A stretch of 64,000 nt of DNA, taken from the NCBI GenBank assembly GCA_038207335.1, contig JBBQZX010000004.1:32001-96000 (forward strand), read 5' to 3'. The notes below the pieces were generated by a model. It worked only from the letters and a program-made list of their open reading frames with translations, searched no databases and was not told the DNA's origin. The stretch's first letter is position 1; each line of letters begins with the position of its first letter. Positions 27,440 through 38,681 of this stretch are shown piece after piece. Source of the stretch: Chthoniobacterales bacterium (lineage in GTDB: Bacteria; Verrucomicrobiota; Verrucomicrobiia; Chthoniobacterales; Chthoniobacteraceae). The translations under genes and the position numbers were made by a program.

Positions 27440-28318
27440 TCAGCCCGCGAACGCCGCGAAAACGCGGTGTCGTCCGGGGAAGCCCTTCAACTCGTGATCT
27501 CCGGGGATGGGTGCCGCGGGCACCACACCCTCCAGCAGCCTCGCCACTGGCTCCGTGAGACACATCGGAATCCCGAACCCGCCGGCCAGCTTCTCCACGC
27601 GGAAAGTCCGGTTCACTTCCGGCCCCATCAGGCTCTCCTCGCCACTGTTCGCGTTGCCACCGATCGCCACCGGCCCGCAGTTCACCACGACCCGAAACTC
27701 CACATTCCCCGTTGCTTGCACCTCGCGCAACGCGGTGAGCACCGCAGCCACGCGCGCGCTCGTTCCCGCCCCGTCGCGCCAAAAGGCCAGGAAGCCGTCG
27801 CCGAGATATTTGTTCATCGTCCCGCCATTCTGCTCGATGACCTCCTTGCACCCGCGCACCCAGCCGCCGACCAGCTCCGCGAGTTGCTCCGGCGCGAGCC
27901 GCTGCGAGAGCGCGGTGAAATTCACGAGATCGGCGATCAGCAGCCAGCAGCGCTCATTGCGAATGTCCACCATCGTCGCCCCGCCATTGCTCGTCTCCAT
28001 GTCCCCCGTCACCCGCGCTTCGCTTTGCCGGAAAGTGAAGAGCGCCTCGCAGATCGCGATCTGGTCGCCATCGTGCAGCTTCACCGGCTGAGCCACCCGC
28101 CGGCCATTGCGCAGCGTGCCGTTGCTGCTCCCGAGATCGATCAGCCAAAATTCATCGCCCTCCTGCGCATGGATCACCGCATGGCGCCGCGACACCCGGG
28201 ACTCCTGGATGCAGACCGTATTTTCCGAGGAGCGTCCGAACGAGCAATTGCCCCGCAGCGCCGTCCGCGCGCCCGCCGCGTCTTCAAGCCACGCCTCATT
28301 GAGATCGGGGGGAATCAT
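27440..28318 (-). CDS. FHA domain + class III adenylate/guanylate cyclase
   Basis: FHA 'FGRSSEN...VSRRHA...DLGSSNGT'; cyclase 'LIADLVNFT', 'NKYLGDGFLA', 'LMGPEVNRTFRVE'. Confidence 0.92.
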   Translation of the reverse strand: MIPPDLNEAWLEDAAGARTALRGNCSFGRSSENTVCIQESRVSRRHAVIHAQEGDEFWLIDLGSSNGTLRNGRRVAQPVKLHDGDQIAICEALFTFRQSEARVTGDMETSNGGATMVDIRNERCWLLIADLVNFTALSQRLAPEQLAELVGGWVRGCKEVIEQNGGTMNKYLGDGFLAFWRDGAGTSARVAAVLTALREVQATGNVEFRVVVNCGPVAIGGNANSGEESLMGPEVNRTFRVEKLAGGFGIPMCLTEPVARLLEGVVPAAPIPGDHELKGFPGRHRVFAAFAG

Positions 28319-28369
28319 CGACCGTTCACTAGTGCAAATCTTGCGCCCAAAGCGAGCATTCCGTGCGCT

Positions 28370-36003: not shown

Positions 36004-38681
36004 TTCGCGCCAGCGATGTCGCGGCAAAAAATCACACCGACCGAATGGTATTTGCCTTTCGGGTCCAGCGCCTTGCGCCGCGCCGGTTTTTGATCCGCGA
36101 GCGCGCCCGCAGCGCCCGTGCCGCCTTTGACGATGAAGCGGACGGAGCCGGGATCGCTCGGGCTCGAAGTCCACTGCCAGAGCGCATCGGCGAGAGCGAA
36201 GCAGCCATACGGCGAAACGTGCGTGTTTTCGCGCGTGAGGGTTTTGGCCATGTAGCCGTCGAGTTGCGCGGAAGGATTGGAACCCTCGATGAAATTGCGC
36301 CCGTCGATGCCGCGGGCGGCTTTTTCCCACTCCTCCTCCGTCGGCAGCCGCGCGCCTGCCCATTGCGCAAAGGCGCGCGCCTCGTAAAAACTCAGCGAGC
36401 GAATCGGCACCAGCTCCGCCTTCGCTTGGGTTTCCTTGAAGCTGCGCAAGTCGGCCGGGCTTTTCGCGCCGGCCTGGAGGTCGGAGGGGACGAGCTTTTC
36501 CGCGGCGAGTGCTTCGCTCACGAGCCGCGCGTAATCGGGGCTCTCGCGGAATCGGAAATACTCCGCGCCGGTGACGAGCGTGGAGCGCATAAAAAAGCTG
36601 CCGACCCGTTTGGTGCGCCTCCCGAGGAGTCCGTCGGCCTGCACGGTGCCGTCGTCGCCCTGGATGAAGTCGCCTTCGTGGATGTATTCGTAGCCGTCGG
36701 GAATCTCGGAAATCGGGATCACGATTTTCGCGCGACCCGCGCGGGTGATCTCGACGGGAAGCGAACACCAGCGTTTGCCGTCGCGCTGGATTTCGAAATG
36801 GCGAAATCCTTGGCGAAGGCGCAGTTCTTTGATCGGCAACGCACCGAGCGGCCGGGTGCCCGCCGCGCCCGGAATTGGTTTTTGCGTTTCGTCCAGGAGA
36901 ATTTCCACGAGCTCCGCGGGGAATTTCGCCTCCACGCTGACGAAGCCTTCGCCGAGCGCAAACGGCATTAGTTCGTTTGCGTCCTTGTCGCCGGGCGCGA
37001 CCCGCAGCGTCTCCTGCAGCTTGATCGCCGCCGCGCCCCAGCGCTGCTTTTCCAAATCGCCACGCGCGCCGGCGATCAGCGCATCGCGCAGTTTTCCACG
37101 CGTGGCGGGCCGTTCGAGGATGAGCGTCGCCTTTCCGAGCGCGGAGACGGCGGCATCCCAATCGCCCTGCTTCGCGCCGCTCTCCGCGGTCGCGACGAGT
37201 TCATCGTGCTGGCGGACGCGCTCCCGAAATCGCCCCGCCTGCCAGCCACCGACCCCCATTCCCGCGACCAGCAGCGCAGCTCCGGCGGCGTTGAGCACGG
37301 CGCGGTGACGCTTGAGAAAAAGGCGGAATTGCCGCGCGAGATTCGCCTGCTCGGCGCTGGTCGCGAAGCCATTTTGATATGCGAGAATATCGTCCTGGAG
37401 CGCCTTCACGGAGCCATAGCGCTGATCCGGATCGTGCCGCAGCGCCTTCATGCAGACGGCGGAAAGCGAGTCCGGAATCAGCCCACCGGGACAGTGCGCG
37501 AGGGCTTTCGGCACCGCATTTTTATTGAACGAAACTGGGGCCGCGACCGCCGAGTCGGTGGTGATTTTCTCGATGATCTCGCTGACGTTCTTTCCCGCGA
37601 AAGGGAGGCGCAGGGTGAGCAAATGATAGAGGATTGCGCCGAGCGCAAAGATGTCCGTGCGCGCATCGAGCTGATCGATTTCCCCGCGCGCCTGCTCCGG
37701 CGCCATGTAGTGCGGCGTGCCCATCACCGAGCCGTCGAGCGTGGAGAAAGCCTCGCCCTGATCGCGCCGAGCGCTCTCCACGAGATGGGTGCCGGTGGTC
37801 GCGGCCTGCGGAATTTTCGAGCTGATCAATTTCGCGAGGCCCCAATCCATCACAAGCACTTCACCGAAGCTTCCGACCATGAGGTTCGCGGGCTTGAGGT
37901 CGCGATGGATCACTCCTTTCGCATGTGCGAACGCGACGGCGTCGCAGACTTTCTGGAAAATCGTCAGCAGCGCGGCCAGCGAATATTTTGCCACGATCTC
38001 GAGCGTTCCCTTTTGCAGCAGTTCGATGATTTTTTTGAGCGTGATCCCCTCGACCAACTTCATCGTGTAAAAGACCTGTCCCTCGCCATCGATGCCGAGC
38101 TCGTGGACGGGGACGATATTCGGGTGCTCAAGCTGCGCGGTGATCTGCGCCTCCTCGATGAAGCGCAGCCGATGCCGCGAGCTCTTCGCCGCATTGCCGA
38201 GGATGACCTTCATCGCGACGGTGCGCCGCGTCGTAATCTCGCGGGCGTTGAGAATCGCGCCCATGCCGCCCTTCGCGATTTCCTCCCCGACATCGTAGCG
38301 CCCGGCGCGCTGGAATTCCGCCGGCAAATCCTCACGCCCCGTCGCCGGAGATCCCTCGGTGACGGGCAGTTCGTGCAGCACACCCGCGCGGATGATGAGC
38401 TGGCTCGAGCCGATTTGGATCGTTTGCTCTGCGCGGACAGGGACGGAACCGGAGACGAGTTCGTCGTCGAGAAAAGTGCCGTTTGCGCTGCCCATGTCCT
38501 CGATGTGAATGCCGTGCTCGGTGACGATGAGCCGCGCGTGATGCCGCGAGACCGGCCCCGCTTTCACCTGAACGCGGCAATCCGACGCGCGGCCAATCGC
38601 GTATTCCCCGGGCTCGAGCGCATAGCGCGCCAGCTCCACGTCGCCTTCGAGAGCGATCAGTTCCAGCGGGGGGCGGTTCAT
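36000..38681 (-). CDS. FHA-Ser/Thr kinase-TM-TPR-FGE/sulfatase-modifying-factor-domain receptor-like kinase
   Basis: FHA, kinase (AKGGMG, HRDLKPAN, DWG, GTPHYMAPEQ), TM 'AAGAALLVAGMGVG', FGE-like 'EARAFAQWAGARLPTEEEWEKAARG...SPYG...WQWT'. Confidence 0.92.
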   Translation of the reverse strand: MNRPPLELIALEGDVELARYALEPGEYAIGRASDCRVQVKAGPVSRHHARLIVTEHGIHIEDMGSANGTFLDDELVSGSVPVRAEQTIQIGSSQLIIRAGVLHELPVTEGSPATGREDLPAEFQRAGRYDVGEEIAKGGMGAILNAREITTRRTVAMKVILGNAAKSSRHRLRFIEEAQITAQLEHPNIVPVHELGIDGEGQVFYTMKLVEGITLKKIIELLQKGTLEIVAKYSLAALLTIFQKVCDAVAFAHAKGVIHRDLKPANLMVGSFGEVLVMDWGLAKLISSKIPQAATTGTHLVESARRDQGEAFSTLDGSVMGTPHYMAPEQARGEIDQLDARTDIFALGAILYHLLTLRLPFAGKNVSEIIEKITTDSAVAAPVSFNKNAVPKALAHCPGGLIPDSLSAVCMKALRHDPDQRYGSVKALQDDILAYQNGFATSAEQANLARQFRLFLKRHRAVLNAAGAALLVAGMGVGGWQAGRFRERVRQHDELVATAESGAKQGDWDAAVSALGKATLILERPATRGKLRDALIAGARGDLEKQRWGAAAIKLQETLRVAPGDKDANELMPFALGEGFVSVEAKFPAELVEILLDETQKPIPGAAGTRPLGALPIKELRLRQGFRHFEIQRDGKRWCSLPVEITRAGRAKIVIPISEIPDGYEYIHEGDFIQGDDGTVQADGLLGRRTKRVGSFFMRSTLVTGAEYFRFRESPDYARLVSEALAAEKLVPSDLQAGAKSPADLRSFKETQAKAELVPIRSLSFYEARAFAQWAGARLPTEEEWEKAARGIDGRNFIEGSNPSAQLDGYMAKTLTRENTHVSPYGCFALADALWQWTSSPSDPGSVRFIVKGGTGAAGALADQKPARRKALDPKGKYHSVGVIFCRDIAGAK

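Follow-up and report, generated by a model that had tools for sequence, protein, structure and literature searches.

Introduction

In Bdellovibrio DgcB, the phosphorylated Thr14 of the N-terminal tail binds the FHA domain of the protein and is proposed to activate its GGDEF domain; a kinase-FHA-cyclase fusion is cited in support, and the accessible part of that account names no kinase (PMC6733907). In the Pseudomonas H1 type VI secretion system (T6SS), the FGE-domain protein TagR is modelled as the factor that dimerises PpkA, a type II kinase with Fha1 as its substrate (PMC13713981). The membrane-associated kinase PknD phosphorylates FHA domains (PMC2765968; also covered in PMC2877116), kinase-FGE (DUF323) fusions occur in Chlamydiae (PMC1262709, PMC2765968), and FHA-kinase, kinase-LRR, kinase-DUF323 and kinase-cyclase architectures, together with the FHA motifs GR, SxxH and NG, are already on record (PMC1262709); cyanobacterial kinases and cyclases have been treated as well (PMC2176072, PMC2853384). 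Here we analyse a window of 64,000 nucleotides, the whole stretch taken from contig JBBQZX010000004.1 (positions 32,001 to 96,000) of a Chthoniobacterales bacterium, in which a cassette at 27440-38681 encodes two FHA-kinases (K1 and K2), a predicted exported leucine-rich repeat (LRR) protein, a pseudokinase-FHA protein (PK) and an FHA-cyclase (AC). We estimate at roughly 0.55 the probability that the kinases, likely sited in the inner membrane and likely activated from the periplasm, switch cyclic AMP (cAMP) synthesis through phosphorylation of one linker threonine of AC, T115.

The FHA-cyclase and its linker threonine

AC (292 aa; 27440..28318, minus strand) is composed of an FHA domain (residues 26-89), a linker and a class III cyclase domain (Guanylate_cyc), as assigned by Pfam. 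In class III cyclases two aspartates bind metal, an asparagine and an arginine serve the transition state, and ATP is specified by a Lys paired with an Asp, Thr or Ser. The corresponding cyclase residues of AC are D130, K170, D174, S229, N236 and R240, among which D130, D174, N236 and R240 align with Cya2 and CyaB. The fold of the AC model matches CyaB (E 5e-12) and Cya2, plus the FHA domain of EmbR; PDB 6hbz, of DgcB, was also matched. Of 2,764 homologues, the top 120, whose identity averages 48%, were used to count residue conservation. D130, D174, N236 and R240 are invariant in all 120 and K170 is kept in 118, while the FHA residues G28, R29, S43, R44, H46 and N66 are likewise invariant (120/120). 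AC is predicted to convert ATP to cAMP.

The linker carries the motif T115-M-V-D118 (27965..27976, minus strand), which we propose as a self-phosphothreonine switch of the DgcB/GarA type. T115 is kept in 114 of the 120 homologues, with Asp or Glu at position +3 in 97 of these 114, and the neighbouring residues vary; among the positions 5-34 residues upstream of D130, none but T115 has Thr in more than 32 of the 120 sequences. In the structural model, linker residues 104-116 have a predicted local distance difference test score (pLDDT) below 50, corresponding to predicted disorder. T115 was also found in 73 of the 76 metagenome AC loci that could be parsed, out of 80. A second FHA-cyclase subfamily (about 33% identity), selected from 20 lower-scoring AC-match loci, keeps a Thr in the linker, 20-22 residues ahead of the catalytic Asp, in 18 of 18 members with that Asp; in the other two, neither residue is present. 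Outside the family, a Thr stands 15-19 residues upstream in 8 of 8 parsed linkers (14 loci), which is a looser test. Since the Thr is conserved, the linker is predicted to be disordered, the FHA domain is intact and the spacing from the enzyme is variable, T115 reads best as a phosphorylation site; alternatively, it may have a structural role. Conservation of the linker threonine, which had escaped the original prediction, also suggests that AC is a substrate and not merely a recruited partner.

The AC family is present in 72 of the 151 genomes of the taxonomic family and, of 8,000 protein clusters scored, 2,764 match it at E<=1e-20. A pattern scan with the single AC sequence gave one genome locus and no metagenome locus; a scan with an alignment was effective. 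Genomes are labelled G000 (genome of the window) or G001, G005, G010 and so forth (relatives), and L-numbers designate fetched loci. At two loci, L174 and L186, the catalytic Asp and the linker Thr are both missing, and these FHA-pseudocyclase genes still stand head-to-head with a kinase gene.

Kinases adjoining FHA-cyclases

Of 80 metagenome AC loci, 43 have a kinase gene no more than 2 kb away, as do 4 of 22 genome loci, the latter being 22 of the 26 top non-self AC places. For random places in G000, the corresponding values are 2.4% (2 kb) and 3.9% (4 kb). Within 4 kb, a kinase, PK or LRR gene was found in 12 of the 22 genome loci. Six of the 43 metagenome kinase neighbours are downstream, including two placed tail-to-tail with genes of kinase-transmembrane-LRR type, and 14 of 20 subfamily 2 loci have a kinase in head-to-head orientation no farther than 600 bp away. 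Both AC paralogues of G000 also adjoin kinases. Because related loci are not independent, no P value is attached to this adjacency. Together with the cyclase-kinase fusion described below, which bears a K2-like ectodomain, and with the intact catalytic and FHA residues, this enrichment supports the kinase-to-FHA-to-cyclase logic put forward in the original prediction.

Two more FHA-cyclases of the genome are located among tandem kinase-pseudokinase-transmembrane genes (G000:C13:37012-47042 and C22:10047-16468). The one on C22 is tail-to-tail with a double-FHA ABC transporter, which we take to be Rv1747-like.

The kinases K1 and K2

K1 (893 aa; 36000..38681, minus strand) comprises an FHA domain (27-91), a Hanks kinase domain (129-431), a marginal transmembrane segment (about 461-479), a TPR-like region and an FGE-sulfatase-like domain (667-840), with Pfam matches to FHA, kinase and FGE. 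Its kinase motifs are GGMG138, VAMK155, HRDLKPAN259, DWG279 and an activation-loop Thr. PknD is its best NCBIfam match (E 8e-74), at 249 bits against a cut-off of 839. K2 (894 aa; 30917..33601, minus strand) has the order FHA, Hanks kinase, transmembrane segment (about 468-486), TPR and LRR, with Pfam matches to FHA, kinase and LRR. Both keep the Gly-loop, VAxK, the alphaC Glu, HRDxKxxN, DxG (DWG replacing DFG) and the activation-loop Thr, and both resemble PknB in the PDB search and PknD/PknB in NCBIfam, below the cut-offs.

Topology was judged from hydropathy scales and the positive-inside rule. A 19-residue hydrophobic segment with a basic N-terminal flank (3-8 Lys/Arg, at most one Asp/Glu) follows the kinase domain in 23 of 23 sequences tested, and its mean hydropathy, on simple scales used without a topology predictor, is 2.34 in K2 and 1.64 in K1. 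Both kinases likely sit in the inner membrane, where the kinase domain would be inside and the sensor end outside. That the LRRs of K2 are outside is favoured because the predicted exported LRR protein has the same type of LRR.

The transmembrane-TPR-LRR part of K2 was matched in 79 of 151 family genomes, and the 19 loci fetched around high-scoring K2-like hits hold mostly single or tandem FHA-kinases. Two of them bear an N-terminal cyclase domain instead. One, L158 (G129), encodes a single polypeptide with the order cyclase-kinase-transmembrane-TPR-LRR, whose identity to K2 is 60% in the TPR, 52% in the LRR and 28% in the kinase domain; its catalytic Asn is replaced by Asp, so that it may or may not be active. 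Related FHA-kinases terminate in WD40 propellers. Since L158 shares K2-like TPR and LRR regions on a different kinase and relatives carry WD40, the ectodomains of these kinases are exchangeable. Cyclase-kinase-transmembrane fusions with TPR, WD40 or LRR ends and an Asn-to-Asp change at the catalytic position were observed at G000:C10:101505-105689, L061:9752-14407, L158 and L164.

The predicted exported LRR protein

The LRR protein (779 aa; 33664..36003, minus strand) has a signal-peptide-like start, an N-terminal domain of about 235 aa and two internalin-like LRR blocks. The start agrees with the secretion proposed earlier, export being predicted. The GTG start codon overlaps the TGA stop codon of K1 (GTGA), also as originally reported. 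The K1 ectodomain was matched in 6 of 151 genomes, at full length in four (G000, G005, G010 and G099), and in all four an LRR gene follows K1, with junctions GTGA, GTGA, TGATG and a 15-nt gap. The LRR proteins of these genomes are 40-68% identical and their signal-peptide-like starts are divergent. This coupling in 4 of 4 genomes supports the proposed function of the LRR protein as a co-receptor, which would bind K1.

Its N-terminal domain is rare: separate searches gave matches in 2 of 301 genomes of the order, five proteins, and 12 representatives, of which one is a short, unrelated-looking match. The seven representatives examined have different signal-peptide-like starts (judged by eye), and five of them carry LRRs. 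No Pfam or PDB match was obtained for the domain, and an Atlas lead to the LolA-like PF17131 is below threshold (score 0.87, 20% of members). It belongs to an unnamed family.

The pseudokinase-FHA protein

PK (457 aa; 28370..29743, minus strand) consists of a pseudokinase C-lobe, an FHA domain and a second FHA-like beta-sandwich. The whole protein has no Pfam match, and a fragment matches PF00498 at E 0.004, below the cut-off. The first FHA domain keeps the G-R, S/G-R-x-H and N-G motifs, with G236, R237, R264, N289 and G290 invariant in 18 homologues; the second sandwich is devoid of the FHA phosphothreonine motifs. In the structural model, two beta-sandwiches match FHA structures. The prediction of four FHA proteins thus proved right, through Pfam for K1, K2 and AC and through motifs and model matches for PK.

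The kinase part was correctly described only to a point. The family profile matches PknA/ULK3 (E 1e-8) and a kinase alignment (97% probability) via its N-lobe-bearing members, so that a kinase-derived fold without catalytic motifs, plus an FHA domain, stands; the N-lobe is lacking in the window copy, whose first residues correspond to the end of that lobe in the homologues and which contains neither HRD nor DFG. A threonine motif, STIMD (104-108), lies at an activation-segment-like position of the C-lobe, and in the homologues, judged by eye, this position repeatedly shows acidic residues and then a Thr. We infer that PK serves as an optional FHA scaffold bearing this Thr.

Of 151 genomes, 48 contain PK matches, and most full homologues have the N-lobe. 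Among 29 non-self loci, PK is followed by a soluble FHA-kinase in 24 and by AC in one (G016). At L035-L041 and L049 this pair precedes a polyprenyl synthetase gene, often after NAD synthase. Genus g10 has PK matches in all but one of its 29 genomes (28 of 29), and the pair looks like a core module. In G076 (L050:3640-5499), a TIR domain is fused to the tandem-FHA module of PK, beside two kinase-transmembrane proteins.

Organization and variability of the cassette

The open reading frames of K1, LRR, K2, PK and AC are all on the minus strand, so the five co-oriented genes of the original prediction are confirmed. Their description as an island holds for the presence of these genes and fails for their contiguity, since a 1.17-kb insert between K2 and PK had been overlooked. 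The intergenic gaps are 62 bp (LRR-K2), 430 bp (K2-X), 91 bp (X-PK) and 51 bp (PK-AC). The insert gene, X (29835..30486, minus strand), is frameshifted near 30040 and belongs to a sporadic hypothetical family, Bacteroidota-like, with a weak DUF6261 lead. An intact relative in G066 aligns with both halves of the window copy. Upstream of X, and like it outside the proposed pathway, a 21-bp tandem repeat of 3.8 copies occupies 30681..30760. Relatives of X were found in 15 of 151 family genomes, in unrelated surroundings, and 21-bp repeats are present near 5 of 11 other X loci examined. Gene X with its upstream repeats (29835-30910) is a unit recurring in unrelated sites of the family, possibly a small mobile or selfish element. 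The segment 30597-30651 is also matched in G005 at a different site (L051:33-87). We rejected the idea that the insert truncated PK, as PK without the N-lobe occurs without X in G010, G014, G016 and G070.

A mis-assembly of the insert region was likewise rejected: run X1 contains a 9.3-kb contig that agrees with 25500-32617 at every position (0 differences), at a depth similar to that of the flanks. As X1 may be the source sample, this contig only argues against mis-assembly. Joints in X1 at 85% likeness have short sides and were treated as other organisms. A promoter scan gave 0 sites where 1.0 was expected, and terminator-like sites numbered 15, compared with 10.0 +/- 3.2 expected.

In G000 (5.17 Mb), profiles matched 26 kinases, 11 FHA proteins and 8 cyclases. 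Genome-wide matches being so few, the density of these domains in the cassette is not random. Further such clusters are found on C13, C22 and C4. The stretch G000:C4:219427-234063 contains tandem kinase-transmembrane-TPR-LRR genes with non-FHA N-termini and long LRR arrays, adjoining a kinase with a sigma-factor-like N-terminus (labelled by eye). The genome encodes seven proteins with PF00027 and two PP2C genes, all outside the cassette. The nearest PP2C phosphatase gene is at window positions 18229-19062, 8.4 kb from the cassette, and a protein with multiple cyclic nucleotide monophosphate (cNMP)-binding domains and a 4Fe-4S domain is encoded at 46329-48368, beside multiheme cytochromes and about 8 kb away. 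Neither T6SS genes nor TagQRST or PppA were detected among the cassette and flanking proteins scanned, and the cassette contains no cNMP-binding effector (PF00027). PADLOC returned generic kinase models and a weak PycC match (E 3e-11), with LRR, PK and X unmatched.

In G005, K1-LRR-K2-AC is present at a different site, without X and without PK. In G010, K1-LRR(5') and LRR(3')-PK-AC are on two contigs with chimeric breaks, from a poor assembly in which PK is frameshifted; we infer that the two contigs belong together. There the LRR gene of G010 is cut by chimeric junctions, with AT-rich DNA of foreign origin and with high-GC DNA that is unrelated (L046/L216, L215). Between G000 and G005, AC is 81-85% and the K2 ectodomain 47-54% identical. 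The ratio of nonsynonymous to synonymous substitution rates (dN/dS) against G005 is 0.10-0.43 in folded domains; in those of K1 and AC it is 0.10-0.42, showing purifying selection. For the AC linker it is 0.76, and for the 22 codons of the signal peptide 1.02. For the K2 LRR, dS is saturated. No positive selection on the LRRs was found in this one pairwise comparison. Pattern recognition or cell contact, as put forward in the original prediction, is a candidate function.

Discussion

These observations suggest the following mechanism. The LRR protein would be exported and pair with the TPR-FGE ectodomain of K1, as TagR with PpkA, a pairing to which the coupling of their genes points. The kinases, to judge from their motifs, would dimerise and autophosphorylate on the activation-loop Thr. 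AC would dock through its FHA domain and be phosphorylated on T115, as the conservation and predicted disorder of this site suggest. The pT115-x-x-D motif would then bind its own or the partner's FHA domain, in the manner of pT14 of DgcB, clamp that domain on the catalytic domain and alter the activity of the dimer. Activation is the more likely sign of this regulation, by odds of somewhat less than two to one over inhibition. The resulting cAMP would be read by cNMP-binding proteins, which are present elsewhere in the genome. K2 would be an exchangeable receptor from a widespread family, and AC may take input from other kinases among the 26 of the genome. In a broader form, to which we give slightly less than even odds, FHA-bearing type II kinases with exchangeable LRR, FGE or WD40 ectodomains would feed FHA-cyclases via the linker Thr, as a direct wire from kinase to cAMP, and K1 and the exported LRR protein would be a receptor/co-receptor pair in Verrucomicrobiota of the Chthoniobacterales type.

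Several points weigh against this proposal. S229, the second purine-specifying residue, is kept in only 71 of the 120 AC homologues, being otherwise C, N, T or R. T115 is part of the profile that served to rank these homologues, which introduces some circularity, and the +3 residue of subfamily 2 is mostly Gly or Ala. As regards the neighbourhood, 10 of 22 genome AC loci have no kinase, PK or LRR gene within 4 kb, 37 of the 43 metagenome kinase neighbours have the same head-to-head layout, probably through orthology, and outside the family a kinase stands within about 1.5 kb in just 1 of 14 AC loci. The predicted kinase-transmembrane topology is strong for K2 and marginal for K1. Because insert X stands between the upstream genes and the two genes PK and AC, co-transcription across it is uncertain. 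Synteny, proposed initially as a check, gave a divided answer: the K1-LRR linkage (4/4) and the enriched adjacency of cyclase and kinase are in favour, and on the other side the flanking ABC permease and esterase genes of the congener G001 are 138 bp apart, forming an empty site, while in G005, where AC and LRR are intact, K1 has lost its FHA domain and Gly-loop, and K2 its kinase domain and transmembrane segment. Finally, a fixed five-gene pathway was not borne out, as no FHA-cyclase was found within the stretch at any of the 19 loci fetched around K2-like genes, and PK precedes AC at 1 of 29. The island is an accessory, modular cassette, not a conserved unit.

The best-surviving alternative, though unlikely, is that of the original prediction, a dedicated pathway working by recruitment only, in which PK and AC dock through their FHA domains on autophosphorylated kinases, proximity dimerises the cyclase, and T115 is incidental or structural. 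It accounts for the retention of pThr-binding motifs in every one of these FHA domains (K1, K2, AC and the first of PK) and for the recurrence of the order K1-LRR-(K2)-(PK)-AC in the genus (G005, and G010 in two pieces) and of PK-AC in G016. It leaves unexplained, however, why a Thr in a predicted-disordered and variable linker is 95% conserved, and kept at another spacing in subfamily 2. Against it, too, PK is usually paired with another gene (24/29). Somewhat less probable again is a conflict or immunity island, compatible with the T115 mechanism, in which variable LRR and FGE ectodomains would sense phage, competitors or envelope damage and cAMP would be the alarm. The cassette is indeed accessory, relocated and decaying, its K2 ectodomain diverges more than AC between G000 and G005, the PK FHA module is fused to TIR in G076, and FGE and cNMP cyclases occur in conflict systems (PMC7159879); but dN/dS is below 1 wherever computable, except in the 22-codon signal peptide, no cNMP-binding effector belongs to the cassette, and the PADLOC matches are generic or weak. 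Least probable is a loose assembly of paralogues, gathered by duplication and shuffling in a genome with 26 kinases in several clusters, AC serving other kinases or none and this copy decaying, as the frameshift of X, the deletions in both G005 kinases and the mostly solitary K2-like genes could suggest. Against it, all five G000 genes are open with their key residues, selection on K1 and AC is purifying, the LRR gene stays coupled to K1 although LRR identity is down to 40-68%, and AC-kinase adjacency takes several distinct arrangements.

If T115 phosphorylation does control AC, this would be a bacterial adenylyl cyclase directly governed by a Hanks kinase, with one named residue and neighbouring candidate kinases, and it would explain the signalling target of many uncharacterised kinases in little-cultured bacteria. 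The cassette would link the Ser/Thr kinase and cAMP signalling systems, and the K1-LRR pair would offer a new exported domain family as candidate co-receptor. AC, at 292 aa, and the kinase domains are small, which makes the claim testable in E. coli.

Relation to described systems

An FHA-adenylyl cyclase regulated by Thr phosphorylation was not found in the open literature, most subscription papers being outside the search. Each part of the cassette has precedent; the open literature searched contains neither their combination nor an adenylyl cyclase switched through a linker Thr. Pycsar systems place a cyclase next to a cNMP-binding effector, unlike this cassette, which has no PF00027 effector and yields weak PycC matches. 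Cyanobacterial Cya1 and CyaD are FHA-GAF adenylyl cyclases; AC likewise has an FHA domain fused to a class III cyclase, but no GAF domain. Chlamydial PknD is the best NCBIfam match of K1; K1 and K2 differ from it in their N-terminal FHA domain, in their TPR-FGE or TPR-LRR ends and in a score far below the PknD cut-off.

The resemblance to plant receptors emphasised in the original prediction is loose. Plant LRR receptor kinases have the order signal peptide-LRR-transmembrane segment-kinase and a separate LRR co-receptor. K2 would share with them, by analogy only, an LRR ectodomain, a single predicted transmembrane segment, a Ser/Thr kinase and a separate candidate LRR partner. In contrast, K1 and K2 have the kinase first and no signal peptide, the order of K2 is FHA-kinase-transmembrane-TPR-LRR, and these are type II, PknB/PknD-like kinases with internalin-like LRRs.

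The likeness to TagR-PpkA-Fha1 of the Pseudomonas H1-T6SS would extend to a Hanks kinase of type II in the inner membrane that dimerises and autophosphorylates, a partner in the periplasm, an external FGE-sulfatase-like domain and an FHA substrate. The cassette differs in that FGE is fused to K1, the partner is an LRR protein, the kinases have their own N-terminal FHA domain, the output is a cyclase, and neither a T6SS gene nor a phosphatase gene is included. With DgcB, AC would share an FHA domain fused to a dimeric nucleotide cyclase and a Thr on the same protein as the proposed FHA ligand licensing activity. Unlike DgcB, AC is a class III adenylyl cyclase and not a GGDEF protein, its Thr is in the FHA-cyclase linker rather than in an N-terminal tail, and candidate kinases are encoded beside it. 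By analogy, the nearer precedents for this cassette are bacterial, TagR-PpkA-Fha1 and DgcB, rather than plant.

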